Source: Schmidtea nova (lineage: Eukaryota). From it: a stretch of 58,128 bases of DNA. The stretch is from the NCBI GenBank assembly GCA_044892505.1, contig CM097884.1, positions 125,989,873 through 126,048,000 of the forward strand. Direction: 5' to 3'. Made by a program: the position numbers and the translations under genes. Shown in pieces: positions 26,561-53,920 of the stretch. Each line of letters starts with the position of its first letter. The first letter of the stretch is position 1. A model generated the notes under the pieces. The model saw nothing but the letters and a program-made list of their open reading frames with translations, was not told the DNA's origin and did not search any database.

Positions 26561-29500
26561 ATATAAGTAGTATATAATTTTCCGTTTTAATTAGATTTGT
26601 AGAATATAAGAAAATAAAATTATAAATTAGCATAATAAATTAAATATAAAAGTTATTAATTAGCCTGAGTGTAAATTTCATATTTAAGAATGATTGAAAA
26701 TTGAAATATAAAATATTTATTGAATGTTTGTGTATGAATATTCCCTTTTCAATTAGTAACTCGTGCTAGCAAAAATATAAAATATAATAAAGAAAATTAT
26801 TTGAATGATATAAAAAATTTGTATTGTGTTTAAAAATAGTTTTTTTAACATTATGGATGTTCTTAATTTACGAAACAAAACAAATACTAGAACCAATCTG
26901 CCAAAATTGTAATAAATCATATTTCTGCTCTGATTCTTCATTTATAGGTGGTTGTTCATGAACTAGATTTTAATTTTGTAATGTCGATAATGTCGCAAAA
27001 TGTAGCCCAGCTTATTATACTAAAAAATGGCAGCAATTTAAGGTCATGGCCTTACAGTGCTCACAAATACCCCCCCTACATCTTTGACTTGTCCCCTCAA
27101 GTAATCCATGATTTTCTTTGAAAATACCTTTTATGAGCTAACCGCGAAAAGTTTATTTGTCTTGGTTGTTATGAATAAAAAGATGTTTTGGAATTTCACC
27201 TTATTTATTATATTAGACTCCAATTATTGAGCACACCATGCATTTAAATCAGATATATTAATTATATTTTAATAAAACAATTTTTTAGGTTTTTTAAAAA
27301 TAATGTACTCGATTTTGGTATGTATGAATTGCTTTAAAGCTAAAGAAGAATATTTGAGTTAGGATCACGGAAATGTTTTTTAATACTATAAATTAAGAGG
27401 ATTTAATTTTGTGTTACTGAAATAAATATTATTTGGAAATTTAATTATGAGTTTTTATTGTACCGATTAAAATGATGTTGCAACTAACAATGACAATCAT
27501 ATTATATGTATCAACCCGTATATTTTTGCCAAATCATCTTTAATATATGAGCCATATTTTACACAATAATCAAACAAAAAATGCTGAAACATGAAAGAGA
27601 GAATAGCGTGACCTTACTGTAATGTAGACTTAACTAATTTCAAACAAATGATAATATTTGTATTTACTATTTCTGGCTTCATTTTATAAAATTTATCATC
27701 CGAATAACAAATTTTAGGATCTTTTTTTAAATATCAGTAAGATTTAAATTANNNNNNNNNNNNNNNNNNNNNNNNNNNNNNNNNNNNNNNNNNNNNNNNN
27801 NNNNNNNNNNNNNNNNNNNNNNNNNNNNNNNNNNNNNNNNNNNNNNNNNNNNNNNNNNNNNNNNNNNNNNNNNNNNNNNNNNNNNNNNNNNNNNNNNNNN
27901 NNNNNNNNNNNNNNNNNNNNNNNNNNNNNNNNNNNNNNNNNNNNNNNNNNNNNNNNGATGACTATAGATCAAAATTTTTTTTTAAACAATAAAAAAAAAT
28001 TGATCTATAGTCATCATTATGAGAATTATTGATAATAATAATAAAAAAAGATCNNNNNNNNNNNNNNNNNNNNNNNNNNNNNNNNNNNNNNNNNNNNNNN
28101 NNNNNNNNNNNNNNNNNNNNNNNNNNNNNNNNNNNNNNNNNNNNNNNNNNNNNNNNNNNNNNNNNNNNNNNNNNNNNNNNNNNNNNNNNNNNNNNNNNNN
28201 NNNNNNNNNNNNNNNNNNNNNNNNNNNNNNNNNNNNNNNNNNNNNNNNNNNNNNNNNNNNNNNNNNNNNNNNNNNNNNNNNNNNNNNNNNNNNNNNNNNN
28301 NNNNNNNNNNNNNNNNNNNNNNNNNTAATTAGAGAAAAATTAAGTCATTATTTTTCATTTAGAAAACTAAATTCAATGATTCCAACCCCTCCACGCAGCA
28401 ATCTCAAAGCAGTTTCACAAGTCTTCATTTTGACAAACGGTCAGAATCCATTTCCCAGAATAAAAACAATCCTCAAATTCAAGAAAACTGAAAAGCTAAA
28501 AATATAAATAAATTATTCCAAACCATTTTATTTATCTTTATCAATTTACACTACAATCATTCGTTTATTTGTAATAATAATTTATTATGCTAATAATGAA
28601 TGTAACATCATAGATGATAAATATTTAATATTATTTTCTTTTGTTAATATTGTGTTGTTTTATATTTATGAATTGCAAATATATTTTGTAGAAGTTATTA
28701 TGATTTTATATAACTATTTTTTAACATAAAAAGAAATTTGCATAATTATTTTTAATTGTGAAATCTTAAAAATAATAAAGTACCGTTTATTTTGAAAATG
28801 AGACAAGTCCATTTGATTATCTTTAATTTTCTTAAGACATTTTTAAACTACATTTTGTATAACTGCAAAACACACAAAAGCTGGCTACATTAAGGTCGAT
28901 GTTTGTTTGAACTTTTAATGAGCTTTTTAAAGGTTATCACGAAGGTTATCAACTTCAGGACGTTAATCGCCATGGATGTTCCAAGTTACTGCTATCAATA
29001 GGTTAGAAATCTTTCTATTCACTAGACGTGTTAAGCAATAATTGTAATCTTGCTCGGAACTAGATTCGAAAGACTTGATCCTTGATCTTAAGGGAAAAAA
29101 TTGTAGAGGTCAAGGTTATATTAAAAGGTTTTAACAAAAGTCGATTATTAATTTTTATTTTATGTTCTCTATTTTGTTGCTGACCCCATATCATATATAT
29201 TCAAGCTAAATACAAAATTTTTCAAATAATTCAGCCTTGAAATCTCTCTGTCGTGTTCCATTGGTAACTATCCTAGGCACTGCAATAATGGTACATGCTC
29301 GGTCACACTAATAATTTTATTAAAAGAAATCATCAAGTGTCAATAAATTCGTTAGGAAAAATTGCAAATGTTATTTTATAGTTTAAATGAAGCCAACAGA
29401 TAATATTGCTGGGTTCATGGACGGGTTGGTAAAGAGGCTAATGATGGCTAGGGATCTCCCATCCATGATCATGCATAAAATGTCGTAAGTTACACTCGAG

Positions 29501-29841
29501 CGCCCTTGATTATTTCCCTTGATAACCAAGTTGGTGATGCGCAGGGTGATTAAACAATGAGGGGCATGTGAGCACTATTGCTAGGACTACTCCCCCTTTA
29601 TGTTTACGGGTTCACGCGGCCGTGGAAGGACTTACGCAATTATTGTTCTATTGTGTGTGTGATGTCATGTAATTATCAAAAACAAAATTTAAGCACAACG
29701 AAACTACTAATACGATAATACTTAAGCTACTCCTTTCGTTGTGTGACGGGTAATTTAAATTTAATTAAATGAATTAGGTAATTGAAGGAAAACATCAGAA
29801 ATAACAACAACAAAACAAAACGAGTAAAAATTTAATTGAGT

Positions 29842-30449
29842 TCAAATTCTGACATCGTATTTTATTTGTAATATAAATTCTTTGAATATTCCTTCAGGAG
29901 GGAACATCTCTGCTAACCACTCGGCTTCCGACATTTCTGCCATCGTGGTTACTTGTGTCCGCAATTGCTGGGAAAACAGCTTCCTTTGGCGACGGCGCTT
30001 GGAGCCGATTCGTTTTCGCTTATTCGGTTTTCCGGCGGGAGTTGGTGCAGTGGTGGTTTCCCCCCGACTCTGCGTCGTTGTTGCCTCGAGTCCATCGGTG
30101 TCTGTACTGATTGAGCAGGCCACTTTCCGTTCTCCTACCCAATTCTGGTAAGTAATGGGTCGGATTTGTGCTTTTAATTCGGACTCGATAAACGAAGTCG
30201 TCACCGAATGGAGGCATCGGCGCAACTCAATTTTTGTTGCTTCCCATTCGGTGCGATAATCGTCAGCTGTCCTTTGAGCCCTTTCTGTCCGACTCATCTG
30301 CTCCTTCATGCGAGCTGGTGCGAACCAGCTGGTCCGTAAATGCTGAATCTGAGCTTCTGCTTTGGCTCGTAAGGCTTTTTCTTGGTTTAGCTCCTTTTCC
30401 AATGCTCGGCGGGTTCTCCACGCCTTGTCCAATTCTCGCTGTTGGCTAG
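29842..30449 (-). CDS. LTR-encoded ORF B, 3' LTR copy: coiled-coil plus basic R/K-rich segment; likely start MTETSQQ
   Basis: ORF track 29842-30537. The internal ATG at 30449 follows ttgttatttag|T. KPNKRKRIGSKRRRQRK is NLS/RNA-binding-like. The protein is identical in both LTRs. Confidence 0.55.
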
Positions 30450-30651
30450 TTTCCGTCATACTAAATAACAAACCCAATTTATAATGCATCAAACATGTTA
30501 CCAAGATTAATATTATCCGTCGAAGGTAAAAAATCACATGATTAAATAAATAGAAATAATTTTAACTAAGGAAAATCAAAAAAAAAAAACACGGATCAAC
30601 ACCATTTAATTTATTGAAATCATTTAGTTTATAAAAATGTGAATATAATGT

Positions 30652-31152
30652 TTAGTGGAAAACACTTCGCTTGAGGCCGTGAACGGGAGTAATATGCAAC
30701 CCGTGATTGACTGGATTTCTTCGGATGTGAGCCATCGAACAGTTTAGTTTGGGGCGTCCATGGCACGTTTTCGGTAGGTGATTCGGAATCAATCCGAATT
30801 TAAGCAACTTGAGCGGTGAGACATATCCCCAATAGATCACTGTCGTTGGATTTCCTTCGCTGTCTGACACCACTATGACGAACAGAGCTGTCGTCTCCCG
30901 GTCTCTTTCGTCCTGAATTTCCCATCCGGGGCCTCCTCGATATACGATGGTATCCAATCCCCCGGTCCAAATTGAGAATGGACATTTCTTTCCTAGTTCC
31001 CACCGCCATTTATACATCAACGCATTTAGCGTTCTGAGGAGTTCCTGTGGGAGCGACTTCAATTTCTGCTGTTGCGTCCGGATTAGAGGATTTTCGACCC
31101 GTGCCGCCTGACGTTGAGTTGTTAGAAATTTATCCAGTATCGTTGCTTTCAT
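30652..31152 (-). CDS. LTR-encoded ORF A, 3' LTR copy: 166-aa unknown protein
   Basis: Open 166-codon frame with higher GC than its flanks; the ATG directly follows tttttttttatcag|. Confidence 0.5.
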   Translation of the reverse strand: MKATILDKFLTTQRQAARVENPLIRTQQQKLKSLPQELLRTLNALMYKWRWELGKKCPFSIWTGGLDTIVYRGGPGWEIQDERDRETTALFVIVVSDSEGNPTTVIYWGYVSPLKLLKFGLIPNHLPKTCHGRPKLNCSMAHIRRNPVNHGLHITPVHGLKRSVFH

Positions 31153-32033
31153 CTGATAAAAAAAAATATAATGCTAATAAATTTTATTGTGACGAATCCG
31201 TAAATTTTGGTGGGACCTGATAAAAATGCTCTGCTCGTTGATCAATAACACAAAAAAATGTGAAAAGGAGGAATAAAAAAAATATTTTCCAAACTAGTCA
31301 ATTAACACCGTCGCTATGTACAGCGATCGGAATATTAAAATTTTACATATTGTTACCTGCGCTATGTACAGCGATCAGGTTACGATTTTACTTGTTTAAT
31401 CCGTAATGTCGATCCGAACATGTCGTTATTTATGTCTAAATTAAACCATAGTTGAAACATCGAAATCGTCTCGGTGTGTCCGGACATTATTTCGATTAGT
31501 TATGTTGATTCACAAAAATTCGCGTGTAGATGGAAAAAAAAATCGATCTAGTCGACCTGATAATTGATATTGTAGTTTGTTTTCGCCTATCTGATCGAAT
31601 ATTAATGTTAACCACTGTCTACAAAGTGTCCTTGTCCCTGCACAACTTTACCGTACCGTGAAACTTTCAAAACCAAAAATTTAAATCAAATAAAGAATAC
31701 CCATAAAAACTCTGCTCACCATCTTGTGGAACGGTGAAATCCCACATTTACGGCGTACTCCCTCGCAGCGTGAGCTACTGAGGAAGTGAATATATATGCA
31801 TAAGTAAAATAAATGAAATAATAAAATCATCAGAATCATTTACGATAAGTTATATTAAATAAAATCATAGGATCAATAAAACTTATAATGACAATCAAAA
31901 TAATTACTTCCACAGGTTTTCCAGATAGCTTTGAATAAATCGTAAAATAAACGCTTTCACAAAGTTCGTGAATTAATGTTTCTAGACAAAGTCTGTCGAC
32001 AAAATTAGTGTTGTGTTGTTATTTTCGGATCGG

Positions 32034-32075
32034 TATTTATACTGATCCAGTTGGTCAGATTGACCAATCAGGATC
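32034..32075 (-). promoter_or_regulatory. Candidate LTR core promoter: palindromic CCAAT element followed by a TATA box
   Basis: Near-palindrome GATCCAGTTGGTCAGATTGACCAATCAGGATC (32044-32075), then TATAAATA on the minus strand at 32041-32034. An Inr-like CTAATTT lies near 32006. Confidence 0.5.
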
Positions 32076-32636
32076 AGGCCGTCCATCAAAGTAATTTTGT
32101 TATTTTATTTTAATATAAACCATTTTAAATTTCCGGTTCAGATTTCTCGCTGGGTGGTCTCGATTTTTTCAAGTAATTAACCAATTAATTGTACTTTTAT
32201 TTGATTTTATTTATAATTTTCTTATTTCAGACCCCCATACTGCTCGTTCCCGTGTCAATTTGATTTTCTTCCTTTGCTGGAAATTTAGTAATTATTATTT
32301 ATTATTTTATTTTAATTTTTAATTTAGGTTTTTCGAATGTTTTTGTGGTTATTATTTGTATCTATTGTTTGAATTAATACAATATCTTTGCCTTTTTAGA
32401 CCAATTGGTGGGCCCAACATCACTCGGGGACCCCTAAAATTGCGTCCCGCAATTAATTATACATAACTACTTATAACATCATACATAAAAAGTTTTACAG
32501 ATATATACATAAACACAAGAAAATCACTTAAGGTGATAGAATTTATACACATCATGAGATTTGTTATAGGATAGTTGAATATTATCAGATTATTGTCATA
32601 GGATAGTCAAAGGTTCATCAGAGATGTTCACAAAGT

Positions 32637-33197
32637 CTATTCGATCCTCCGGCTCGCATTGGGTTGGGTTTGAGTTCTCTCATTGATTGTAGCTAATTCG
32701 TAGTGGGTCTGAATTTGATCTAGATGTTTTCTCATACGTCTTTGGGTTCGGTTGTCTCGCCTTGATGTTTGATTGACGATGGTTTGTTTCTGTTTGAGGA
32801 TTTTTATCCGGTAGGAGGCGATCAGGATTGTGATTGCGATGGTAGTTATGCTGATTGAAAGGATTATGATGATTGCTATGATCCATTTTTCTTGATATTC
32901 TATTTCAGCTTGGGCTAGGCTTTTTATGGGCTCTCTACCTTCTTTCAGGGTTTTTTGGGTTTCTTTTAGTTTCAGTTGTTGGTTATCGAAGATTTGTTGG
33001 ATTTGATGATCTTGATTGTGGGGATATTTCTGTCGGAATTCGTTGATTTCTTTAATTACTTCTTCGATTAGGCTGTCTACTTTTTGGTAGGTTTTGTCGG
33101 GTAGAACTCGTAATTGGGTTTCGGTAAGTTGTAGATCTTCTCTCTGTAGGGTGATGGTTATTAACCATAGGAGTATTGGTATTGCGAGCTTTCTCAT
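32637..33197 (-). CDS. Accessory 186-aa type I membrane protein (signal peptide, helical ectodomain, TM, basic tail)
   Basis: N-terminal MRKLAIPILLWLITITL; TM WIIAIIIILSISITTIAITILIASY; A-rich codon use like the rest of the element. Confidence 0.75.
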   Translation of the reverse strand: MRKLAIPILLWLITITLQREDLQLTETQLRVLPDKTYQKVDSLIEEVIKEINEFRQKYPHNQDHQIQQIFDNQQLKLKETQKTLKEGREPIKSLAQAEIEYQEKWIIAIIIILSISITTIAITILIASYRIKILKQKQTIVNQTSRRDNRTQRRMRKHLDQIQTHYELATINERTQTQPNASRRIE

Positions 33198-33275
33198 TTC
33201 TATCTTTACATAGGAGTCAATACAGCTTGACGCTTTTTATTTTACATCATCTATTTACAATTGGTTTCCGCTCAT

Positions 33276-34337
33276 TTACACGAGGGTTTCGTTAGGTTCG
33301 TGAAAACCTTCGTCTTGAGGTTCCACCTGATTTATGGGGAGTGGCATCCATATTACCGTACTCCTCCACATTTCCACTTCCTCTCGGTATGTGTGGGATA
33401 TCTGAATCTCTTCATCTAATAAGTATTCCAGATAGTTCGCCTGCTCTGTTAGGGTTTCTATTTGTTTTTCTAGTTCTGCTAATTTTTTCTCTCTCTCTTC
33501 TTTCTCTATCATTTCGGTCACTGCTGCTGTGATACTTGTTTCCTTTGTGGGTACTGGTTTTTCTGTTAGCTTCTTTCTCAGTTCTTCGTTTTCTTTTGTC
33601 AAGTTGGTTATGTTCTCTTCATAACTCTGTTTTGCTTCTTCCATTCTTTCTTTGGTCCTTTTTAATTCTATTTTCTTCTGGGTAATCACTCCTTGATATC
33701 CATTTATATCTCTTTTCATGTTTTCCTCCTTGTGATTCCACATTCCGGTCAGCATACCTTTTAACTGTTCTTGATTGGCTAACTCCTCTCCCATTCTTTG
33801 CACTTGATAAGTTAGTTCTTTAATTTTCTTGGCTTGTTCTCTGATGAATTGTTGTCTTTTCTTACTCCATACCTTATTTGACGCTTCTTGACTGATCTTT
33901 TGCCCTAATTCCTCTTTTAATTCGTCGATCTCTTTAAACAGTTTCCAATCATCGCTGTACGCTGTTCGTTCAATTATCTCCCTGGCTTCCTTGTAAGAGT
34001 CTTTTGCCTCTTTCTTCCAATATCTTGCTTGTTCGGTGATTGACTGAATCTTATGGTCTGTTTTTATCTGTTGTCTATCTCTATCCTCTCGTCGCTCTTT
34101 CATCATCCCTTTGTAGTATTCGTTTTGTTGTCTTAGCAGTTTGTAGACTTCTTCTATTTTTTCTCGACTTTTATGATTCGTTTTCTCGGCTTCTCTTAGT
34201 GCTTGGGTTTGTCTTTCTAATTCCTCCTGTTTTCGATAATAGGCGTGAATCCATATCCCAATCCGCTCCATGTGATTTCTGATCATTTCGTCTTGATGTA
34301 CGGTTACTTCCTGTAAGGTTACCTCTATATTTCCCAT
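33276..34337 (-). CDS. Accessory 353-aa coiled-coil protein, function unknown
   Basis: Long E/K/Q/R heptad-like ORF in the element's sense orientation; no recognisable family motif. Confidence 0.8.
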   Translation of the reverse strand: MGNIEVTLQEVTVHQDEMIRNHMERIGIWIHAYYRKQEELERQTQALREAEKTNHKSREKIEEVYKLLRQQNEYYKGMMKERREDRDRQQIKTDHKIQSITEQARYWKKEAKDSYKEAREIIERTAYSDDWKLFKEIDELKEELGQKISQEASNKVWSKKRQQFIREQAKKIKELTYQVQRMGEELANQEQLKGMLTGMWNHKEENMKRDINGYQGVITQKKIELKRTKERMEEAKQSYEENITNLTKENEELRKKLTEKPVPTKETSITAAVTEMIEKEEREKKLAELEKQIETLTEQANYLEYLLDEEIQISHTYREEVEMWRSTVIWMPLPINQVEPQDEGFHEPNETLV

Positions 34338-34448
34338 TTCTATAATTACAGATAAAAGAATATTTAATCAGTTTTTATTTTTATTGTTTTTGATTATTTG
34401 TTATTTCATATTGTTTTATACAGTTTATTTACATGGTTACTTTCTTCA

Positions 34449-35825
34449 TTACGCCAACCATCCTTTTCTGTCTGTTTTCTCGTGCCTCTCCATCTCTATG
34501 TATAGCGTGTCTGCATACAGTTGCTCCCATAGGTTTTCTTTCCTTATAAACATTGGTTCTCCTGCTGCTAGTCCGCATTCTGTTGTTGGTTTTTCGCTTG
34601 TACTCGTATGTTTGTCTGTTTCAAAGAACTTTTCTACTGGTTTTCCTATACTTTTGATTCTTATAATGACTCCTACTTTCAAGGGCCATTCTATTAGGTC
34701 ATCGTATTCTCCTTTACATAACGAGAAGAATATTGATACGTGTGTTCCTTGTCCTCTCCCGTCTCCATTTGGGTAGACCTTCAATCTTATTTTAACCCCA
34801 TTTTTCCATAAATAAAATGGTGGGCTTATTACTGCTGTTTTCGTCATATTTCTGGCTTCTGCTAGTTTGTCTCTGAAATCTGTTACTTTCCATAGGTAAG
34901 GTGCGATTGGTAAGTCCCTTCTTTCGTCAATTTCTCGTATTAATTGATTATATTGTATTTTCATTCCTTTTCCTAATTCTTCTATGGCTATTATTTTCTT
35001 TTCCATTCTTTCGCGAGTTAGTTCAAACTGCTCTCTTGTTTCTAGTAGTAAACTCATCATTATCTTATGTGATTCTACTTCTTTTTCTAATTTCTGGATT
35101 GTCTGTTCTGTTTCTTTTGTCGTTTCGTTTGTCATTTCCACATGCGTTAGTGCTGCTTCTTCCAAGTGTTGTTTCATTGTTTTTCGCGTCCGCTTTTCCT
35201 TGCATCCATGCTTGTTATATGGACATTCTCTTGGCCTTTCGGTGCATATTTTCCAATGTTCATGTAACTTTATTTCTTCTGTTATTTCGCAATTGTTTGG
35301 ACATTTGCTTACATATTGTCCGCATACTTTCTCCTCTGTTATATTTAAGTGTTCTTCTTCGATTTTTCTCCTTGTTTCTCGAGTTTCACAATACTCGCAT
35401 GCGATTTCTTCTTCTTTACATTCTTCCTTGTGTTGTTTTCTCTTCTTTAGAGTTATTGTCTGTTGGCATTTCTCGCATTCGGCTCTCTTTTCCTCGCATT
35501 TTTCCATATGGTTTTCCAGATTACTTATTTGTCCTTGCCATGTACAAGGTGTATTTACGCACTCCGTTGTGGTGCTCATAATTTCTCTTTGGGTTGCTTT
35601 GTCCATTCTGGTTTCATCCAACACTATTTTTCCTTCCTTACATTCTGGGCATGTTGTTATTCCTGTTGCATCTAATTCTTGTATACATTTTGTACATATT
35701 CTACATCCACATATCGTTTGTCTGGGTTCTCGCAATAAATTATTACATTTTCCGCATGTGAGCCTCTTGCTCCATTTTCTGTTTTCTAATCTCAAGATTT
35801 CGATTATTCGTTCTTCTCTGTCCAT
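34449..35825 (-). CDS. TRAF: Full-length TRAF-family protein (RING, TRAF zinc fingers, coiled coil, MATH)
   Basis: RING CGKC...CGCRICTKC...CPEC; fingers such as CVNTPCTW...HMEKC and CPYNKHGC...H; MATH signature SPPFY...KIRLKVYPNGDGRGQGTHVSIFF...GEYDDLIEWP. Confidence 0.93.
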   Translation of the reverse strand: MDREERIIEILRLENRKWSKRLTCGKCNNLLREPRQTICGCRICTKCIQELDATGITTCPECKEGKIVLDETRMDKATQREIMSTTTECVNTPCTWQGQISNLENHMEKCEEKRAECEKCQQTITLKKRKQHKEECKEEEIACEYCETRETRRKIEEEHLNITEEKVCGQYVSKCPNNCEITEEIKLHEHWKICTERPRECPYNKHGCKEKRTRKTMKQHLEEAALTHVEMTNETTKETEQTIQKLEKEVESHKIMMSLLLETREQFELTRERMEKKIIAIEELGKGMKIQYNQLIREIDERRDLPIAPYLWKVTDFRDKLAEARNMTKTAVISPPFYLWKNGVKIRLKVYPNGDGRGQGTHVSIFFSLCKGEYDDLIEWPLKVGVIIRIKSIGKPVEKFFETDKHTSTSEKPTTECGLAAGEPMFIRKENLWEQLYADTLYIEMERHEKTDRKGWLA

Positions 35826-35919
35826 TTTCTACAATAATATATACATTCGACTTGTCATTTATTTTTGGATTTTTTCTTGTTTTTATTTTTACATATTTAC
35901 AGTTTTCCGCTTTATTTAT

Positions 35920-36276
35920 CTATGGCTCATTCGTTGAATCTGGTTCCGCTTCGTTGTTTAATCTATTTATTACCCAACTCATCCATCCTTCTTCGGATCC
36001 TTCTCTTTCTCCTCGTGTTAAATGGTTTATTTCTATTGCTTGTCTTTGATTGGTGTTGCTTATCGTTTGATTTTCCCTGGTGAGTTCAGTTATCGCTCTT
36101 TGTTGTTCCTCTATTCTGTGTAATTGTTCGAAACAATTGTTATAACTTTCTGATAGTAACATTTGTTTTTCCGCTAATTGGTTCTGTAATGAGTTGACTG
36201 TTCGTACTAATAAATCGCATTGTGCTTTCCATCTCATAGCCATAGTTATTTCGGTTGTTTCGTCCTGTTCGGTCAT
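35920..36276 (-). CDS. Accessory 118-aa coiled-coil protein
   Basis: First ORF after the polyprotein; heptad-like Q/E/L pattern; same TAG-AAA-ATG start context as its neighbours. Confidence 0.65.
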   Translation of the reverse strand: MTEQDETTEITMAMRWKAQCDLLVRTVNSLQNQLAEKQMLLSESYNNCFEQLHRIEEQQRAITELTRENQTISNTNQRQAIEINHLTRGEREGSEEGWMSWVINRLNNEAEPDSTNEP

Positions 36277-36402
36277 TTTCTAAATTATATACATTATTTA
36301 CTTTGCTTTTCTATCTTTTTACAATTTTTTATAATATCGATACCCATACTATTACGGTAATGCTTTGTTATTTACACTATTATTTACAGTCATAATCCGC
36401 CC

Positions 36403-39400
36403 CTATACCATCATTATCGTCTTTTCTTCGTATCGTTCTTCCTCTTCTATTTGTTTCCAGAATTCTTTACCTTTCGTTCTTCTTTGAAATTCTTTCTGTA
36501 TCTCCTCTGGTATTTCTATTCCTAGTTTCATGATTTTAATATCTGGCCATTGTATGGCTGTCGCTTTGTTTCTCTTTCTGTATCTCCAATATACTATTAT
36601 GCTTGTCGTCAGTATTCCATATGCTATTAATATTCCTATACTCATTAATCCTATTATTGTTTTTCCACTGTTTGTTTCTCTTTTATTCTGGTTCGCTTTT
36701 ATCTCATTTTGGGTTTGAGCCTCTGGCTTCTTCTCTTTCGGTATTTGACTCTTGACTTTGTTCATTACTTCTTGGGTAGACCAATGGTGGTTTAGTAGTT
36801 GTTTGACGTCATTTTTCGTCGTCTGGTTTTCTACGCCTCCTGGTTCGGTCTGTTGTGATAGTTTCTCTGAGATCTGATATAATCCGCATTCTGGTTTTTC
36901 TGAACCTTTTCTGGTGAAGGTACATATCGCGTATGTCCTATTTACTTCCATTTTCTTTAATTCGACTTTTTCTTTATTCTTTATTTCTTTACAGTGGGTT
37001 AGGTTGTCTTCTTCTACTTCTGGTTTATGTTTTGTCCAACATATTACTTTAACTGTCTGATCGAGTCCTGTTAATGTCAGAGTTCTTTCTGTTTTAGTTA
37101 GTTCTTCTTCATCGAATTTCAGAGTTTCTCCTTTTTGGAATGTCTTGCAATTTTCTATTCCGGGTTGATCTTCTTGGGTTCCTTTCTCCCATATACATAT
37201 ACTTCCTTCTTCATTCATTTGTATTTCTTGTATTTCGATTTCCTTGTTTGTTCGTGATTCGTCGCTTGTCTGAACTTGGTATTCTCTTGGTTCGTTGTAC
37301 CATACCCAGCATATTTTGTTACTTTGGTTTTTTCTCCTTATTGTCATAGCCATTTGTTCTATTCTTATTCCTTTATCGATACGTTTGGACATTGCTATTA
37401 TTAATGCTATGCATACGAAATCTTGTTGGGGTGATACTTCTTCTCTCGTGTTATTTGTGCTTCTCTCCCCTTCTCCTGGTTTGTCCGTTGTGTTTTTCAT
37501 CTGAGTTGCTGGTTGATCTATTGTGTTTTTGATTTCTTTCTTTGTTGGTTTTACTCTATACCATTCAAGTCTAGGCGTTTCATATTTTTGGCATACGACT
37601 GTCTTAGGTAGCCCCGACTTCTTTTCCTTTTCTATTATGCATATCCGATGCATGGTCCCTCCATCCATTTCTTCTATTCGTATTATATCCTGGTCGGATT
37701 TTCGGATTATGCATTTTAGTGGGTTATTTTCTCCAATTGGTTCATCTTCTCTATACCAACATATTTTCTCGACTTCCTGGACATTTATTATTTTTATCCC
37801 TGTCTGTGGGTTTATTGCTTCTTCCCCATTGATTAATGTCAATATTATTGTTAGACCCAACCATTTTGAACTCTGCGGTAGGCTTCTGGTTCGCCTTTCA
37901 TATTTTTTCTCTTCTCCTTTAATCTCTTTTATTTCCTTGTCTTTGTTGTTCATTCCTAGTTTTGCGATTTTTGCTTCTTTCTTATTCCTGGTCGGTTTTG
38001 GTTCTTCTCGTGCGTTTTCTTCCAGTATTTCAACTCCATGGCTTGTATTGTATATATTTGGCCATTGGGTTGCCGATTTCCTTGGGTTTATCTTGCGTAT
38101 CCATATAGCTGATAACGCGATTATTACGGGTATGGTCGCTGTTAATATTCCTAAGCCAATTAATTCTTTGATTTGTTTATTCTCGTCTGTTTGTATAGAT
38201 TTGCTTTGGTTGAACATTATTCCGTATTGTCCTTTTAGTTTTCTCATTAATTGTTCTCGTTCCTCTTGCTTTCTTTTGACTTCTTTGATAACTTCTTCGG
38301 GTGTCCATTTTGCTTGAGGGTCGATTATTATTTTTTCTGCGTCCATTTGTTCATTCGTTTGGCTTAGTTCCCTGAATTCGAGTTTCCTTGTTATTCCTTT
38401 TGATGTCGCGTTTACTGGTGTATAGTAGGTTTCGCATCTTTCTTGTTGGTTTCTTAGTGCGTCCATTATTTCTATTGCGCATACTTCGTACTCGCTATTA
38501 AATTGTAGTTTTTCGATCTTGATTTCTTTATTTGTTTTTCTGCATTCTCTTGATTGTCTTCTTATATGTTTCTGTACTATTATCCAACATATTTCTAATG
38601 TTTTATTCTCTATTTTCCATAATGTTAGAGTTGCTGATGTTTTTCTCTCGGGTTTCGTCGTAACTTCTTGGTTTGTTGGTTGTTTATTGTTTTTAAAGGT
38701 AGTGGTGTACTTCGGTTTTCCTTTGTTTCGTTGTTTCCTTTTATTTTTCCGTGTTAACGTTTTGGTTCTTGTTCCGGATGACGTTGTATATATTCCGCAT
38801 TCTAGGTCGTTTATCGTTATCTGATCATTTTTCTTTACCAAACATATTTCGTAGGTTTGTTTACTTTCTAAACCTTTTATTTGAATCGTCGTTGTTCCTG
38901 TGTTTGTTCGACATTGTGGTGTCGTTCTTTTATTTACTTCTTTTTCGTACTTCCTCCAGCATACTCCTTTCACATTTGGTTCTATCTCTTTTATTTCTAA
39001 TGTTATGTTTACTTTCCGCTTGATTTGTTTATTTCTCTTCCTCGTTCTCCTTCTGAACTTTATTACCTCTCCAGGTTGAAATGTTTTACATTTTGTGGTA
39101 CCTTTCTTGTTCGTTTCTTTTTCTAGTAGGCATAGTTTGTACGTCTTATCTGCTTTTACTTCGGATATTTTAATTACTTTATTCGTTGTTGGTTTTCGAC
39201 TTTTCCTTATTTCGTTTACGCCGATTTCCTCGTTATTTCTCGCCCAACATTTTATGTTAGTATTCTGTGTATCTTCTACTTCTGTTATTGTCATAGTTTC
39301 AATTTCTATCCCTTCCTCTAATCGTTTTATCATTATTAGTATGAGTGCTAAACATAATACTTCCATTTGGTAGGACACTCTTTCGGTTTCGTTTGTGGCA

Positions 39401-42400
39401 ACTCTTGCTTCAGGCCTCTCTATTGTAATTCGTAGGGTTGGTGTTGTTTGCTTATCTGTTGCCTGGGGTTTTTTGTTTTCTGTTCCCTGTGTCTCTGTCC
39501 TTCCACATTTTCCGATGATGTAATCTCCTTTGGGTGACTGTTGTATTGTCATGGCTGCTTTAGGTGTTTGGTATTTTGCACATGCGATTGTGTTGTGTGA
39601 TCTTGGATGCTTTTGTTTTCTAACGGTGCATATTTTGTACCAGGTATTTAGATCCAGGTCGTTGATCTCTATGATTTCTTGCTCGTGTTTTGAGATTCTG
39701 CAATCCATCGGGCTATTTTGTTCCGTGATTTTGTCCTTTTTTGACCAACATACTCGTTCGATTCCTTTTGCGTTTTTTATTTGTATTATTGCCCTTTCTT
39801 CACATGTCATTCCTTGACTTGGATTAATTAACGTTATAATCATTGTTAGTAATAGTAATTCTGGTTTGAAGAATGGTTTTATGGTTGATTTATAACCTGT
39901 TCTTTGGGTGTCATTTTTATCTCCTTGGTCGTTTGTTCCTTGTTCTCTCTCTTCATCTCTTTGTTTTTCTTCTTCACCTTTCTTTTCTTCCTTGTCTCGT
40001 TTCTTGTCTTTTCTCTCGTTTTCCTCTTTATCGGGTGGTTCGTGATCGCTTGAATTTTCTGAGTTGTTACCGTCGTCACTATCTGTGTTGTCATCTCCCC
40101 CTGGCTCGTCGAAAATGTCGTCCTCGACATTGATTTCTTCTATCAATTTTGCGTATGCTAATGTCGTTAGATTACTTGCCTCAAATTCTTGTGTTTCTAT
40201 CTGCTCCGGTATTATTTTGTTAGTGGATTTATATTCTAAGATTTCCCTTTTGGCCTTGATCCAATTGTTGATGTATGTCTTCATTAATTCTTTCCATTTG
40301 CCTGTGTATTTTCCCTCTCTCGGGTTGTTTGTGACTCTTAGATCCTTTCTTTCCATAAACATCTTCAATATCTCTGGCCATTTATATGTTATTAGGGCAC
40401 TTCTTATACACCAGTTTTGGTTATGTTCTGTAAACTCATTAATCTTGAATGCTGGTTCGTTGGTATTCGGATTTATCCACGTAAGTATTGATTCTGTTAG
40501 TTCGACGTTGTTCATCATTGCTAGTACACTGGGTTTCCTGACCGTATCAGTTAGGTAATCTATTTCTTCCTGATTTGAGATTGTTTTAATGAAGTTGACC
40601 ATTTCCCAATTATGTGTTAGTAATGCTACATCCAAAATTGAATTATCTTTATCTGTCTTTCCTGTAAGTCCTGCACCTGCTTTGTATAGTTCTTTTAATA
40701 CCTTTGTTTTCGTTTTGGCCCTTGCTGCAAATACCATAAGTGTATCTCCTTTCTCGTCTACCATATTCATATTGCTTCCGCAATTTAGCATTACTCTTGC
40801 AATTTCCATTACTTTTCTATCTTTGCCATTTCGTAGAGCTCTGTGTATGGGCATTATTCCGTCCTTTGGTAGTAAAAATGTTACTGGCATCTCCTTTTTT
40901 ATAGTTGTTATGTCGTTACCATTGTATGTTCCTTTTGCGTATGCGTGTACTTTTTCAACTAATGCACCGAGTATTTCCAGTGCATGTTTACTATTCTCAA
41001 ATTCCGGTAACAATTCTTTTGCTTTTTCTTGTATCGCATCTAGTCTAGCTTGGTATGGTGCTTCTGCTTTGAAGAGTGGTGTGAGTTTCTTGTTGCTTTC
41101 TCTTTCTTTTTTCTCTAAAACCTGTTTGCATTTTTCGGGATGGTTTAAAATTTTTACTAATTCCTCATATTCGCTTACTATTGTCTGGTATTTCTCGTTA
41201 AAATTGTTTATGTCTTTGTATGTTATTAGTTTGTCAAGTGGTTTCGCACACCATTTCCTAATCTTGTTGAATAAGGCTTCCTTCTCTTTATCGAATTTGT
41301 ATTCTTCTTCATTCTTTGTGATGTTTATGTTTCCTCTATCTAATAAGGTTAGTAATGTCTTCTGATCACAAGTAAATTTCAAAAGGTATCTTAACAGTGC
41401 GTTTTGTCCTTCGCTGTATACTTCGTTTATGTCTAAGACCCATGTATCATCTTCTGGTCGTTTCCATTTGATTAACTTACGGATCGTGTTGCATTTACCA
41501 ATTTTGATGGCCTCTTTGATAATGTCTCCTTTAACTAGTTCGTCTATCTCCCAAGTGGAGTTAGCTATTATGTATTTCAGCATTGGTTGGTGAGAACTCC
41601 ATATTACGTGATTTAGCACTGTTTTATCTTCTCTATCTCGTTCTGTCCAACTGAAACGGGCTTTTATCAGCAGATCTACCATTTCTTTATCCGCTTGGTA
41701 GATTGCTGCTGTCATTAATGGAGTTTCTTGTTCACGATTCCCCACGTCCAAGTTTTGGTTTGTTTCCTTTGCGATTTTTAGGAATTCTTTTGCTCTTTCA
41801 ATGTTTTTACACTGAATCGCATTATGTAAGGCTGGTTGTCCTCCTACATCTTTTAATAAGAGTATTTCAGGGATTTTTATCAATAATTCAGAAATAATTG
41901 GTTCGGTTGGTAATCCTTGTGCGTAACGGCTAATTATGTGTCTAATGTCCCTTGATATGCCTGCTTCGTCTCTAACATGCCATCTTCCCATTATCTCTCT
42001 CGCCTTCAATAGGATTTCTTTATTTCTGATTTCTTTTTGCCTTATTTCTGTTTTGTCGTCTTCGCTGGTGTTTGCTCTGAGCATGTTTATCCTGGCTGTT
42101 TGTGATCTGGTTATTATTCGATTCTCTGGTGTTGTAGTTATCGTTTTAGGCACCTTCTTACATCTGCAGGTGTTTACATATATGGGTCGTATTAACGGTC
42201 GATTTATTAGCTTAACTTTGACATTGTTGTCCTTTTTGTATATAATTTCATAAGGTCCTCTTCCAGGTCTTTGGAGTTTCTTAACAGTTCCTGGTATTAT
42301 TTCGGGAGTTTCTATTATCACCCAATCTCCTGGTTTTAGGTCGTTCGCTTTAACATTTTTCTTCTGGTCGTGTAAATCCTTATAACTTTCCTGATAAAAT

Positions 42401-45400
42401 TTAATGTTGAGTTCTGCCGTTTTCCATATTTCCTGCATCCTTTCTTTGAATTTGGTTACGTAGTCGTCGTCTTCCATATATTGCGATAATGGTGGCTGGT
42501 ACTCCAAATCTATGGGCATGTTGCATTCTCTGCCATACATAAGTTGAAACGGGCTTAGTTTTGTTGCGGCATGTATCGACATTCGGTATGCCATTAAACA
42601 TAATTTTATGTATTCATCCCAGTCAGTTTGGTGTCTGCTGACGTAATTTGATAACATTCTAATCAATGTGCCGTTGAATCGCTCCGTTTGTCCATTCGTT
42701 TGCGGGTGATATGGTGAAGTTCTCAATTTCGCTATTCTGAAATAGTTCGTCACCTCGTTTAATAACTCACTCATAAAATTAGTTCCTTGGTCTGTGAGTA
42801 TTTGTTTTGGAGTTCCATATCTGCAGCATATTTCTTCCACTAGAATTTTTGCTACGGTTTTTGCTTTTTGATCTTGCATGGCAAATGCTTCCGGGAATTT
42901 CGTCAGGTAATCCGTTATTACCAGTATGTAAATGTTTCCGTTTAAGCTTTCTGGTAATGGTCCTATTACGTCCATTGCTATAGTTGTCATTGGCTCTGCT
43001 GGTATCGGCATTGGTTGTAGCGGGTTCTTCCATTTCTTCCCACTATCCTTTCTAGTTGCGCAAGTTAGACAATTTTTAATCCATTCTTTTATATCTTCTT
43101 CCATTGTTCGCCAATAATATTTTTGTCTCATCCGATTTATTGTCTTTTTCTCTGACATATGACCTCCTAATTTCCCATCATGGTACTGGATCATTATCTC
43201 TTTCCTTCTGTTTTCCGGTAAACACATCAATCTCTTTTCTCCGTTTTGTATTAACAACCATCCTTTATTTATTATGTAGCGATGTTGATATTTTCCTATA
43301 TGTTCCTTTAGTTCCTTATTATCCTTGAATACCTCCATGTTTCGAGATGTTAGGAACTCTATGATCTGTCCCAATTCTTTGTCTTCCTGTTGATCTTTCT
43401 TTAACTCACTAAAGTCCAAATCTTCCGCTATTAACACACAAATTCGTTGTACATCAGGATCGGTTAATTCCGGAAATGTCAGTCTTGACATACAATCTGC
43501 ATTCGCATTCGCTTTTCCTGATTTAAATTTTATGTCCGGTGAGTACTCCTGTAACTGCATTGCCCATCGCATTAATCTACTGGATGTTTCCTTATGTTGT
43601 CCTAACCACACAAGCGGTTGGTGATCTGTGGTTATACAGATGATGTGTCCCCATAATAAATATTTAAAGTGTTTAATTGCTAGTATAATTGCTAACGCTT
43701 CTCGCTCGGTTACTGAGTAATTTTTCTCATGCTTTTTGAATGTCCGGCTATAATATCCGATTACACGTTCTTTTCCTTCATCGTCGTATTGTCCTAATAC
43801 TGCTCCTGCTGCATATCCGCTTGCATCCGTTGCAAGTAGGAATGGCTTCTTGAAGTCTGGGTGTACCAATATGGGTGCGGTTATCAGTTTATCTCTCAAT
43901 GTTTCAAAGGCTGTTTGCTGTTCATCTCCCCATATGAATGATACATCTTTCTTTACCAGCTCCTGTATAGGTTTTGCAATTCCGGCGTAATCTTTTATAA
44001 ACTTTCTATAATATCCACATAATCCAAGAAATTCTTGTATCTGGGTTATTGTTTTTGGTACTGGACATTCCTTTACTTTGTCGATATTTCTAGGATCCGG
44101 TTCTTTTCCTTTTGCTGACACTATATGTCCTAAAAATGTTACTTTCTCTTTCGCCCAATCACACTTGGATGGCTTGAGTTTTAACTTCCATTGTCTAAGT
44201 CTAACGAATACATCTCGAATATCCTGTATGTGTTGTTCAAACGTGCTAGAGTAGATTAATAAGTCGTCGATGTAGACCATACACTGCTTTATTCCATGGG
44301 TGACAAAATTCATGCATCTCTGAAATGATGCTGGTGCGTTTGTTAATCCAAAGGGCATCTTTCGAAATTGATATAGGTCTCTACCGATGGTAAAGGCAGT
44401 TTTCTCTTTATCTTCTTCCTTCATTTTTATTTGCCAGTATCCGCTTTTCAGATCTAGTGATGTAAAATATGCTGCTCCCTGTAATGTTAGTAGCATTTCG
44501 TTGATGTCTGGTAATGGGTAAGTATCTCGTTTTGTCACTGTATTCAATCTTCGATAATCTATGCAGAATCTCTGTGTTCCGTCTTTCTTCTTTACCATTA
44601 CTACTGGAAATTGCCAGGGTGAACAACTTGGTTCGATTACTTCTGCATCCAACATTTTCTTCACTTCTGCTTCTGCTACTGCTTTCTGTGCTTCCGCTAA
44701 TTTGTACGGCCTTAATGCAATTGGTGTTTCATCTGTTAATGGTATTGTATGTAGTGTGACATCACATGTTCCTAGATCCAAATCGGATGCTGCAAATATA
44801 TCCTTATACTCTATCAGGAGTTTTTCTAGCTGCTTCCTTTGATCCTCATTTAATAATTCACTGTCGATATTCCAGGTTGGTTCTTTATCTTTCTCTGCCC
44901 CTGCTATTGGTAGTTCGATATCCATCATTGGGGTTAATTTACCTAATCTTTCGTTTTCGTAGATTATTTTATCCTCTTCGTCGAAATTTACCACGTTTAT
45001 TGGGATTTCTCCATTATCATTTATGTTGACTAATCCTCTTGCCATTGGCAACGCTTTTCTTTTCTCGAATCTCTTACTTGGTTCGAAAATCATATCGCCT
45101 TGGATTGTCGGATCTATTTTTACGTAACATATTTTTTCCTTTCTTGCCGGTATTATCATTTGCTTTGAACTTGTCACTTTGGCTTCTATTGCGCATATTT
45201 GTCCTGTGCGATCCTTTAGTCTCATTGTTCCGAGGTCGATTACAATCTCTTTAAATAGTGCTGGCATCAAATCTGTTCCGATAATGCAAGGTACGCTTAA
45301 TGCTGGTATGACAGCTACGTACGTATCGATTTCCGTATTTAAGTGGCGTATTTTTACCCACCATCTTCCTGCTACTTCCACAACTTCTTTGCTACATGCA

Positions 45401-48400
45401 ATTACATGGACGTTTGTCCTTTCTATATCTCGTCTTTGCTCTTGTGGTATCCATTTGATGTCGATGGCGGAAATGTTTGCTCCAGTGTCGATCATTGCTT
45501 CGATTTCTCTTCCGTTAATTTCTATTGTCGTGGTTAGTACTGGGCCTGTGTTTGATGACATTACTGCGATCGTATGTGCGTCTCCTTGTGGATCTACACT
45601 TCTACATCTTCTCATTTTATAATCTTCTGGTATCATGGGGTATACATTTGTCATTGGCAACATTTGCATCGTGCTATTTTTTCCTCCTTGTAGTGGTTCT
45701 TGATACATTGTTGGCGGAGGTGCGTAACATTTCCATGCGTCGGCTGGATTCTTTTCGATGTATCGTGGTGCTTGGTTCTTGTACACTTGTCCTCCCTTAT
45801 AGTCGTCGTCGTCATCATCGTCGTCACTCGAATCATTTTGGGTTTTATATCCTTTCACCCTCTCCCATAAACCTTTTCTTTCTCTCTTGAGCTGTTGTCT
45901 TGCTTGTTCGTCATTCATTATCTTTTTAAATTTTCGTCCTACTTCTTCATCTGTTCCCTTCATTTTTGCTAGTATCTTTAGGAGTCTTTTTATTCGATGG
46001 ATATCTTTTGAGTGTCCATGCAACACCATTGTTTTCGCAAGGAATGGTAAAAACCCTACTATCATTTTCCAATTCACTTTCTTTTCTCTCTTGTATATAT
46101 CGAAACACGCTAACATTTGCGTTATTATTACTCTGACGATTTGGATTATTAATATGACCCCCAGTATTCCCGCCATCATTTGTCCAAATATCAGGAATCT
46201 TCCCCACATTGCTTTCATCATATTTTCTGTGGCTTTCTTGAAATGTGCTGGTGACAACAACAGTTCATAATTCGGTCCTTCTCGATAATCCGTTCCTCCC
46301 GTTATTGTTACGATATTTGATAGTAATGCTTCTCTTCTCGCTGGAAATAATATATTCTGCCTTGCTGCTTCTAAATCCTTTGGACTATATATTCCGTTAT
46401 TTGAGACATCCACGTCGCTGAATTGCCTATCCTTTGACAACTGCATTAGCTCGAATTCTCTTGGTGCTATCACTTCGGATCTTCCTGGGAACATAACCCA
46501 TTTACCATCTGGTTTCTGATAAAGTGGTCCATACGCATTACTACAGTTGAATGGATTTGGTTCAAACCCTGGTGGATTGATGATTCTCGTCACTGGTTGA
46601 ACGTATCGTACTTTTCCTTTGTAGTCGATTTCTAACTCGTTTGTACAGGTTCCAGGTTTCAACTGTGTTGTTGCTGCTAACGATGCGTGTGTCTTTTCAC
46701 AAATGTATACATACATTGCTTCTCCAACCACTCTTCCGAAATGTCCTTCTCTCAGTGGTAATAATGGCATCGCACTATCTGGATTCGTAATTGCTACGGC
46801 CAACTTTGTCTTTAATATTTCTCGATTCAGTATACAATCATTGTTTATCAGATCGTAGTACACTTTTTGTAATGAGGCTTGTCCTCTATGGAATAGGAAA
46901 TCCATTTTATTATTCACATATAGGTGTAGTTTGATATCCATTGTGTCGATTTTGGGTTTCGCATTTGGCACTTCTTGTTTTGACACATATATTCCTGGAT
47001 AATTCGTTTCGTATACCGTTGTACTACACTTAAGGGTTGCTTTCCCTTTTATGAACCTCATTCCTACATCCTGATTTGTGGTTATCAACACTGTTGGTGT
47101 GGCTCTCATCTCTATCCGTCTTTCTCTATGATCTGGTTTCAGTTGTCTTTTATTCTCTAAAGCTTCCTTGAGATGCTTTGCTCTAGCTTTGTCGTCATCG
47201 TCTTCTTCCTGGAACGTTTTTCCTTGGATTTCGTCGAACTTTGCTCCTTGTAGCAGTTGTAATTGACATTCGTTCACCTTTGGTTTGTACACTAATGTTG
47301 ACATTCCCGTTTGACACATGCTCCTGTCGATTTTACACATGGATAACGTTTTCATTTCTCCCGTTGTGGGTTCGAAGAATGCTTCGTAGCTTTTTAGTTC
47401 GACTATATACGTATCCATCACCACTAAGTTGGTTGCGAGTGTTCTTAACATCGGGTACGTTTCTCCTTGACAATATCCTTCTCCTCCCGTAATCCGTCCT
47501 GCTACATAGTACGTCTGTTGCATCATCATTCCTGGCTTTCCTTTTATCTTGATTTTATCTCTTGTTGTTACTTCTCCATGTTTAAACAATGCTTCGCAGT
47601 CCTCTCCTTGTAACACGATTGGTTCTCTTTCCGTTCCTGGCATGACAATTGCTGAATAATGTCCTCTCCCGCAGTAGAATGCGAATCTCGTCTTCTGCAC
47701 CTTACATTCATTTACCATTGTCTTTATGAGTTCTGCTTCTTGATACACGTGGTACCATTGTTCCTTTTTAATCTTTTGCAACTCTACTGGAGTTGCATCT
47801 TTGCATTGCTCCGTGCCTCTCAATGAATACTTTTCTCCTAACTTCATTTGGTCGCAATCAAACACTTCGAACGCTGTTGCGCTATCGGTGCTAATCATCC
47901 ATATCAACATCATCATTATTATAGAACTCAAATTCATTGATGACTTCGCGTTTCTTGTTCCTGCTTGTTCTTTTCCTAACTCTTCCAATATTTTTTCGAA
48001 TTTCTTTTTCATATTCTTGGCTTGTGTTTTCTTCTGGTTAGTTTTTATAAATGTTTCCCATCCTCCTTTGTTAATGACGTAGGGTTCTATTTCTCTAGCT
48101 ATAATCTTTGCGGTAATTTTTATATGTCTCTCTAATGCAGTGGGTTTTGGTCGACCTCTACTCAGTGTCAACAGATTGTAGATCGTGTATGCAATAGCTA
48201 TTACGTATTTGTTATCTGTTTCCGCTCCTTCTGTCAATTTCTTTATTAACATAGTGGTTCCTTGCCAGTCTAAATGATTTGACTTCGTCTTTTCTTTTAT
48301 GAATTCCGGTAAGATGGGTGCAATTGCGCTGTGCAATGACTTCGCCTTTTCGCTTATCTCAGTTATACGCCAGTATTTTTTCAATTCCGGATCAATTATT

Positions 48401-51291: not shown

Positions 51292-51450
51292 TTTTACTGA
51301 TGGTGCATCTCCTATTTGTAAGAACGCTTATCTGGGCAGTTTCGTTACTCCTGGAATCATCTGGTTTACTTTATTGAATAGTATTTCCACCTTTTCTTTT
51401 GCGTTATATTGGAATCGAAACATATGGTCGTTGGGCATGATTACCATCAT
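49084..51450 (-). other. Three ubiquitin-like (beta-grasp) domains at ~51220-51450, ~49888-50130 and ~49084-49290
   Basis: Each starts with a hydrophobic strand, x-P-N-x-D/H, a second strand, then T/K-I/V-x-x-L/I. The best example is LKISVELPNEDTKEIEVVADCTIKELINVI...LYKIGIWDNHQTIHVI. Confidence 0.6.
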
Positions 51451-53310: not shown

Positions 53311-53920
53311 CTGGATTACTTTTATATTATCAATTTTCTTGTCCTATCTATTATCGTTTTTCTGATTCTTCTTGTTGTTTGATTGATTTGATTGATTTGT
53401 ATATCTAAAATACAAAGGTCCTCAACGATACCTTATTGTTATCGTCGCGCTTTTATTCCCTTTCTTTCGGGATTACTTATTACTGGGTTTTCATTATTTC
53501 CCATTCTCAGATTCCCCTTTATTTTTAGTCTATTTAAATTATCTATAGACTGGTCACAATTATCTATTTATGTCGTAATAATTATCTATGTTTTATCAAA
53601 TCCATTACTTTTCCCACAGTTTCCCAATTTATTGGTCGCTCGAGCGCTCTAATTCCCTGAGTCTTTCTGACTCGTTTATCATTATTTTATCATCTTTATT
53701 CATTATTCCCTGCTAGCAATCGTTTTACTCATTCTGCCGGTTGTTCCGGTCAGCTCGAATTTTTATTATTCTCCTTGCATGCTTTACTTAAGGTTGCATA
53801 ATCAGCTTTACTCGCATTTCTTAACTACTAGTGCGCACTATTCTAAATCTCGTCGACGATTACACTATGGGTCTATATTCCCTCGGTTACTATTTATCCG
53901 GATATCTCTATAATCCACTA

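Follow-up and report, generated by a model that had tools for sequence, protein, structure and literature searches.

A two-part module in the spacers between accessory genes of a Burro-like LTR element of Schmidtea nova

In a 58,128-nt stretch of the planarian Schmidtea nova genome (assembly GCA_044892505.1, contig CM097884.1, positions 125,989,873 to 126,048,000; here called the window), one long terminal repeat (LTR) element on the minus strand fills the right half, and each of its four accessory genes is preceded by a short spacer built in the same way. An earlier sequence-only reading had drawn attention to UGUA motifs of the Pumilio type in these spacers. We find that the spacers share a two-part module, of which the UGUA motif forms one half; the other half, which was missed in that reading, resembles a splice acceptor. 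The first half is anchored to the stop codon of the upstream gene, and the second half leads directly into the start codon of the downstream gene. We propose, with a confidence a little short of even, that a spliced LTR leader gives one mRNA per accessory gene and that the stop-proximal UGUA pair is a PUF-type site. All results refer to one element copy and its four spacers (126, 94, 111, and 78 nt; 409 nt in total), in which the patterns were chosen after inspection; the coordinates of all features are collected in Table 1.

Results

The sequence-only reading listed eight UGUAHAUA sites, all of which (8/8) read as stated on the minus (sense) strand, and held that every accessory spacer carries the motif, which is the case (3, 2, 1, and 1 UGUAHAUA in spacers 1 to 4). 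It also estimated that well under one match was to be expected and called for a comparison with shuffled spacers. When this was carried out with 20,000 shuffles of each kind, the mean was 0.105 (mononucleotide) or 0.352 (dinucleotide), and no shuffle of either kind reached the 7 matches that are present in the 409 nt of spacer. The spacer rate is 17 per kb; at the rate seen in the AT-rich host flank, 0.05 would be expected in 409 nt, and none of 1008 overlapping N-free 409-nt windows of the flank contained more than two UGUAHAUA. The shuffles and the flank windows together rule out chance occurrence in AT-rich DNA.

One form of the motif, TGTAAATA, occurs in all four spacers, and no other exact 8-mer does so. 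Allowing for the freedom to find any such word, some 8-mer was common to the four spacers in 4.1% of shuffles, and one with at most five A's in about 0.25%, the last 7 nt being held fixed in both cases. The enrichment concerns the full 8-mer and not just its UGUA core: HATA follows 7 of the 15 spacer TGTA, whereas 7 of 309 TGTA in the flank are continued in this way (P = 9e-6 on local composition). All 15 TGTA, and likewise all UGUAHAUA sites in the spacers, are in the sense orientation, and the reverse word TACA does not occur there (0 versus 2.3 expected). Over the whole element, position 5 is A, U, or C, and never G, in 12 of 12 sense matches to TGTANATA. Two further sense matches (TGTACATA), overlooked in the earlier listing, are present in each LTR (57489/57441 and 31370/31322). 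The 19.8 kb of coding sequence has no sense UGUAHAUA (1.7 expected, not a significant deficit) and five antisense matches. The eighth listed site, assigned to the final 3′ untranslated region (UTR), is indeed there (32509, 127 nt past the last stop), but its context is different: it belongs to one of three TATGTAT repeats in a U-rich stretch (50% U) unlike the A-rich spacers, and the match is probably a feature different from the spacer motif. The spacers have little predicted structure (−2.7 to −11.4 kcal/mol, z about 0), and the mean unpaired probability across the seven spacer sites is 0.37 to 0.85.

The first TGTAAATA is offset from the upstream stop codon by 14, 18, 15, and 16 nt in spacers 1 to 4 (P = 5e-4), and the next TGTA follows at 26, 26, 26, and 29 nt past that stop. 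The two TGTA fall within a common 16-nt window if the spacers are anchored at the stop codon but not if they are anchored at the downstream ATG (P = 0.003 allowing either anchor). In one study, the first 15 nt after the stop codon were omitted as being covered by the ribosome (PMC6277124). In a compact genome, a cytoplasmic binding site would be expected to be pushed against this limit, whereas a nuclear processing signal need not respect it.

At their other end, all four spacers close with TAG-AA(A)-ATG. On the element's sense strand (28.7 kb), the word is confined to the four accessory starts, with one occurrence at each, and none of 448 other ATG triplets in four coding regions has it. The chance of YAG at −6/−5 in all four spacers is 1e-5, and that of any shared 3-mer at this place is 0.003. 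Because the spacers contain 12 upstream ATGs (3, 3, 2, and 4), all of which an acceptor at the TAG would remove, scanning or reinitiation is unlikely. Two other candidate explanations were tried and rejected: overall homology of the spacers (MAFFT failed to align the motifs) and relics of the module inside the polyprotein (five TGTAAA, no TAG-AA(A)-ATG).

A candidate donor for such acceptors lies close to the inferred transcription start. Three GT sites within the first 930 nt (58128-57200) score at least 6/9 against a donor consensus, and the first of these is gaa/GTAATT, 39 nt beyond which lies the first ATG after the inferred start (31868). Both the donor and the acceptors are candidate sites recognized by sequence pattern. 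Strong donors combined with weak acceptors are the rule in retroviruses, where unspliced RNA must be kept (PMC9143442).

The sequence-only reading interpreted the UGUA words as PUF/Pumilio elements and, alternatively, as CFIm signals for internal polyadenylation. The former interpretation is plausible, given that the 8-mer is enriched beyond UGUA, is never G at position 5, is sense-only, and is anchored to the stop. PUF proteins bind the UGUAHAUA word and can repress, activate, or localize RNA, and planarians have a Pumilio, DjPum, on which neoblasts depend (PMC5855632). The polyadenylation proposal is weakened. AATAAA is present in three of the four spacers but is not enriched (P = 0.06 to 0.21), spacer 1 has neither the canonical nor a planarian-variant hexamer, and the sequence following the stop-proximal hexamers contains 17 to 32% U, compared with a U fraction of 0.40 and a GU-rich run at the LTR signal. 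The combination that defines CFIm-enhanced poly(A) sites, UGUA upstream of AAUAAA plus a U/GU-rich downstream element, is thus not found in the spacers. In planarians, UGUA is reported to be absent upstream of poly(A) signals, and CFIm59/68 to be undetectable (PMC5068929), although the latter is a homology-search negative and not final. The further suggestion of translational control in stem or germ cells is unsupported, its only ground being where Pumilio acts; in Schmidtea mediterranea, BURRO1 RNA is derepressed in differentiated, intestine-enriched cells after smedwi-2 RNA interference (PMC8532177). We consider cell-type specificity of any kind improbable from the sequence.

Discussion

We propose that the 3′ end of each spacer, TAG-AA(A)-ATG, would act as a deliberately weak 3′ splice acceptor 2 to 3 nt before the start codon and that a short first exon, free of ATG and derived from the 5′ LTR, would be joined to one such acceptor, yielding one subgenomic mRNA per accessory gene, as in complex retroviruses. 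TGTAAATA at +14 to +18 and the second TGTA at +26 to +29 would then form the head of the upstream gene's 3′ UTR, just outside the terminating ribosome, where a UGUA-specific cytoplasmic protein, most likely Pumilio/PUF, would bind the pair and tune the translation or stability of the upstream gene's mRNA. The parts of this proposal are not equally secure. Splicing at the spacer acceptors is likely, the identity of the binding protein as a PUF is evenly balanced, and use of the gaa/GTAATT candidate as the leader donor is put forward somewhat more tentatively.

Several points weigh against the proposal. It draws on only four spacers of one element copy, with patterns picked after looking. Three of the four acceptor sites have no clear pyrimidine tract (6, 8, 12, and 8 pyrimidines per 16 nt, compared with 12 and 14 at two LTR acceptors), the site in spacer 4 (AGATAG) is poor, and the implied intron of 22 to 25 kb would have to skip stronger LTR acceptors. 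AA(A)ATG may be mere start-codon context. The TGTA found 4 to 16 nt before each acceptor is only marginally clustered (P = 0.04 to 0.11), and we therefore do not count it as a constant part of the module. The stop codons of the RING gene, gag, and the last accessory gene have no such module behind them. Shared ancestry of the spacers, in three of which GCGGA precedes the first TGTA, could explain the spacing without any ribosome constraint. Finally, Pumilio usually represses, and the benefit to the element is not evident.

The main rival is an operon-type arrangement of the kind known from flatworms and nematodes, in which cleavage and polyadenylation past the UGUA/AAUAAA cluster would release the upstream cistron and the one downstream would acquire a spliced leader (SL) through trans-splicing at its TAG. 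The layout is similar, with same-strand genes about 100 nt apart and YAG just before the next start: the spacing of 78 to 126 nt falls within the limit used to define such operons (≤300 nt, same strand; PMC12582326) and fits both the ~100-nt intercistronic mode of Macrostomum (PMC8629364) and the 99-bp median of Schistosoma mansoni (PMC12582326). SL trans-splicing occurs in Schmidtea (PMC10899757), AATAAA lies 0 to 2 nt after a TGTA in three of four spacers, and the module is present only where another accessory open reading frame (ORF) comes next. YAG is present at all four accessory sites; the flatworm SL acceptor motif UUNYAG (PMC12582326), which was derived from parasitic flatworms, is matched exactly at two of them and at the site upstream of gag but fails at the other two. 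Known SL operons differ from this array, which is part of an LTR element and has a candidate cis donor ahead of it; an upstream cis donor normally outcompetes the SL (PMC4558846). The 3′-end signals are weak, with AATAAA not enriched, no hexamer in spacer 1, and low U after the stop-proximal hexamers, and planarian poly(A) sites reportedly lack UGUA (PMC5068929). Efficient cleavage would, moreover, destroy the genomic RNA. On balance, we judge this explanation possible but unlikely. A composite version, in which the accessory genes would run as a miniature eukaryotic operon, with host SL trans-splicing at the four TAGs and stop-proximal Pumilio gating processing or translation in the cells where both are concentrated, namely stem or germ cells, is distinctly less likely.

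Scarcely more doubtful than that composite is the view that all four spacers descend, with divergence, from a single ancestral intergenic unit, and that only the acceptor still matters, TGTAAATA being an inherited passenger or a generic AU-rich 3′ UTR word. Besides the GCGGA common to three spacers, all six pairwise alignment z-scores are positive (1.0 to 2.4), but these scores include the motifs, and the spacers do not align outside them; MAFFT did not align even the motifs. That 15 TGTA and no TACA were kept while the remainder diverged implies selection.

A role in mRNA stability is also unlikely, marginally more so than common ancestry. Here the stop-proximal UGUA pair and the unstructured A-rich run would shield mRNAs with very long 3′ ends from nonsense-mediated decay, like the stability element of Rous sarcoma virus, and the protein need not be a PUF. 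The stop-anchored position and weak folding of the spacers agree with this, and position-dependent elements near the stop codon have precedent (PMC4764554 and PMC6277124). In the Rous sarcoma virus RNA stability element, bound by PTBP1, protein-binding words likewise stand beside an internal stop of a retroelement RNA (PMC4764554), as putatively here; the words in our element, however, are A-rich UGUA words rather than pyrimidine tracts, whereas known elements are pyrimidine-rich or merely unstructured. In addition, the RING, gag, and last accessory stops, which likewise precede long 3′ regions, lack the module.

The words might instead be DNA elements of small internal promoters, one per accessory gene, which we regard as very unlikely. 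Six GTAAATA, which we take to be a forkhead-type core, are present in the spacers versus 0.67 expected, although two of the seven UGUAHAUA matches are without it. Foamy viruses and mouse mammary tumor virus have internal promoters (PMC9143442); here, all 15 TGTA share one orientation, the spacing follows the upstream stop and not the downstream ATG, and upstream ATGs would remain in any 5′ UTR longer than 14 to 72 nt. Least probable is that a single polycistronic RNA is translated by reinitiation after termination, or by internal ribosome entry, on its A-rich spacers, for although the spacers are unstructured and those numbered 1 and 2 have a 4- to 5-codon upstream ORF ending at the TAG, 3 nt before the main ATG, the TAG ends no upstream ORF in spacers 3 and 4 and 12 ATGs would compete.

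Our preferred combination of leader splicing and a stop-proximal PUF-type site has separate counterparts in known systems. Complex retroviruses such as HIV-1 and the foamy viruses produce one LTR transcript with a 5′ donor and several weak acceptors before accessory starts (PMC9143442), an arrangement seen here as a pattern; the present element differs in being a gypsy-type invertebrate element whose four acceptors share one stereotyped word and lie in short noncoding spacers, paired with a stop-proximal motif. The Pumilio response element (UGUANAUA, or UGUAHAUA; PMC5855632) is matched as an exact 8-mer on the sense strand, in noncoding sequence, clustered, and after stop codons. In our case, the element is recognized by its sequence and lies in the internal spacers of a mobile element, where its distance past the stop is fixed.

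Weak acceptors, PUF sites, stop-proximal elements, and the element type are each known separately, and for this reason the surprise is limited. We did not find the two-part spacer in the literature searched, including the passages on Burro elements, a weak negative given that most subscription papers lay outside the search; the accessible parts of PMC13238120 and PMC11410931 contain nothing on spacers. Nor did that literature yield a viral precedent for stop-proximal Pumilio sites or a report of a retroelement with a PUF site behind each gene. Elements of the Burro type are plentiful in planarian genomes, and the genes they carry include some of apoptosis and of the ubiquitin pathway. The recurring module suggests how the accessory genes of the present element may be made and regulated, and it gives exact coordinates for four candidate splice junctions and four candidate stop-proximal protein-binding sites. 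If PUF binding is true, the retroelement would have repeatedly installed the site of a host translational regulator behind each gene.

Structure of the element and its surroundings

The LTRs are 99.8% identical over 2604 nt (55527-58128 versus 29407-32009), which suggests a recent insertion, and the 5′ LTR is cut by the window end. The element contains no N, compared with 1257 N in the flank. We take the primer-binding-site-like word at 55520-55503 to resemble a tRNA-Pro site. The internal region (32452-55526, 23.1 kb) has the order protease, reverse transcriptase, RNase H, and integrase by LTR comparison and domain search.

Table 1. Features of the LTR element and its spacers in the window
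Feature	Positions	Strand	Description or basis
Spacer 1, 126 nt	36277..36402	-	TGTAAATA at +14 (36388) and +26 (36376); TGTATATA at 36293; TAG 36282-36280, then AAA-ATG
Spacer 2, 94 nt	35826..35919	-	TGTAAATA at +18 (35901); TGTA +26; TGTATATA at 35845; TAG 35831-35829, then AAA-ATG
Spacer 3, 111 nt	34338..34448	-	TGTAAATA at +15 (34433); TGTA +26; pyrimidine tract; TAG 34342-34340, then AA-ATG
Spacer 4, 78 nt	33198..33275	-	TGTAAATA at +16 (33259); TGTA +29; TAG 33202-33200, then AA-ATG
Fifth acceptor-like word, TGTATTTTAG, upstream of gag	53405..53414	-	No ATG before the gag ATG
First donor-like site, gaa/GTAATT (31907 in 3′ LTR), closing inferred ATG-free leader exon of ~105 nt	58021..58029	-	Pattern only
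3′ LTR, ~3.0 kb	29407..32451	-	LTR identity; ends in CA; 5′ edge inferred from TG start
5′ LTR	55527..58128	-	LTR identity; window end near inferred transcription start
Primer-binding-site-like word	55520-55503	-	Follows 5′ LTR
TATA-like box of LTR promoter, CCAAT-type words upstream	32034..32041	-	Consensus match only
RING-finger ORF, 167 aa	54685..55188	-	PF13920, E 4e-11
gag, 516 aa, zf-CCHC; in-frame stop ahead of polyprotein	51328..52878	-	Pfam, frame relation
Polyprotein, 4953 aa: fusion glycoprotein (env), protease, reverse transcriptase, RNase H, integrase, ankyrin repeats, membrane-anchored C-terminal modules	36403..51264	-	Pfam, hydrophobic segments
Accessory ORF 1, 118 aa	35920..36276	-	No Pfam match above cutoff
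Accessory ORF 2, TRAF-like (RING, zinc fingers, MATH), 458 aa	34449..35825	-	MATH_2, E 8e-21
Accessory ORF 3, 353 aa, coiled-coil-like	33276..34337	-	Weak Filament match below cutoff
Accessory ORF 4, 186 aa, signal-peptide-like N terminus, one membrane segment	32637..33197	-	Sequence features
Final untranslated stretch before 3′ LTR, U-rich, three TATGTAT repeats	32452..32636	-	No stop-proximal module
Two near-identical LTR hairpins (bulged), UGUACAUA across each loop	57510-57425, 31391-31306	-	RNAfold −22.7 kcal/mol, without shuffle control

By its layout, and above all by the env placed between gag and protease, this is a Burro-like giant gypsy LTR element. Like Burro/GYPSM1 of dugesiid planarians (PMC6431247), it is ~29 kb with LTRs and ~23 kb internally, has a giant polyprotein in which a mononegavirus-type fusion glycoprotein separates gag from protease, carries ankyrin, TRAF/MATH, and RING domains, accessory ORFs, and leader tandem repeats, and resides in an AT-rich host; its internal region lies within the size of up to 25 kb described for Burro-like elements of this domain order. 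Polyprotein matches are to PF24664 (E 2e-70; residues 1385-1725, ahead of the protease at 1912), RVP, RVT_1, RT_RNaseH, rve, and Ank_2. Among Burro-like accessory domains, Ank_2, MATH_2, and zf-C3HC4_3 scored above the cutoff, with no BIR match; BCL2-like and ubiquitin-like matches are weak (Bcl-2 E 0.18, Ubiquitin_4 E 0.09; Bcl-xL matches E ~1.8), and no dUTPase match was obtained. The TRAF is a downstream accessory ORF here, whereas in described Burro elements it lies inside the polyprotein or upstream (PMC6431247). Among 44 matches to pol, mostly pseudoscorpion gypsy proteins at ~40%, there was no named Burro or planarian protein; the best (52% over pol) was P0037, in which one ORF covers Gag, a ubiquitin-like domain, env, ankyrins, and pol. 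Gag is N-terminal in the same ORF in P0037 and in the described Burro elements, whereas here it is in the same frame but closed by a stop. The available description of Burro elements in PMC6431247 has nothing on spacer signals or accessory-ORF expression.

The gag stop shares the frame of the 4953-aa ORF, from which it is separated by 21 open codons (51330-51265, minus strand), and may be a read-through site or a lesion of this copy. The gag frame is also open for 155 codons 5′ of its ATG (53343-52879, minus strand), an acidic stretch without ATG and a possible N-terminal extension. A peptide motif, I-N/S-M-L/M-R, is repeated at domain borders (gag residues 366 and 412 and polyprotein residues 91 and 3059) and probably marks protease cleavage sites; the pattern [IV][NH]ML had no match in P0037. 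Toward its C terminus (~39900-36403, minus strand), the polyprotein resembles a series of fused surface proteins, having several hydrophobic segments together with cysteine-containing modules of similar appearance; BLASTP gave no internal repeat there at E < 0.01. Accessory ORF 2 had 11 matches to animal TRAFs at 24 to 36% identity, 8 of which have 24 to 27% identity across 79 to 94% of the ORF length. No relatives of accessory ORF 3 were found among 7274 candidates at E ≤ 0.01, and accessory ORF 4 gave leads only in Atlas (best score, 0.79), with no usable match.

The leader between the RING ORF and gag contains tandem 32-nt and ~30-nt repeats (53907-54212). An Rfam scan of 29300-58128 gave no match at E ≤ 1; a tRNA scan (0 found) and a bacterial promoter scan (12 found versus 11.2 expected) were uninformative.

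Within the LTR, the two hairpins are candidate protein-binding or packaging signals; the UGUACAUA loop sites of the 3′ LTR copy are at 31370 and 31322, and a donor-like cag/GTAACA (57475) lies inside the first hairpin stem. The LTR also carries two ORFs of 166 and 215 aa (31152-30652 and 30489-29842, minus strand; repeated in the 5′ LTR), with U-rich acceptor-like sites close by. Neither has a Pfam match, and the first has no usable match in Atlas; an arginine-rich run in the 215-aa ORF presumably resembles the Tat/Rev RNA-binding motifs. Judging from the TATA-like box at 32041 and from AATAAA at 29866, which is accompanied by a GU-rich run, the R region would be ~2.2 kb long (32041-29800, minus strand), an unusual length.

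The host flank, mostly 18 to 36% GC with short N-masked stretches, contains two host bestrophin exons (2794-2946 and 6064-6300, plus strand), the best relative of which is 70% identical among the 150 matches listed. It also holds several inverted-repeat elements like miniature inverted-repeat transposable elements (16325-17587, 20152-21182, and 22424-23997), with hAT and gypsy fragments elsewhere.

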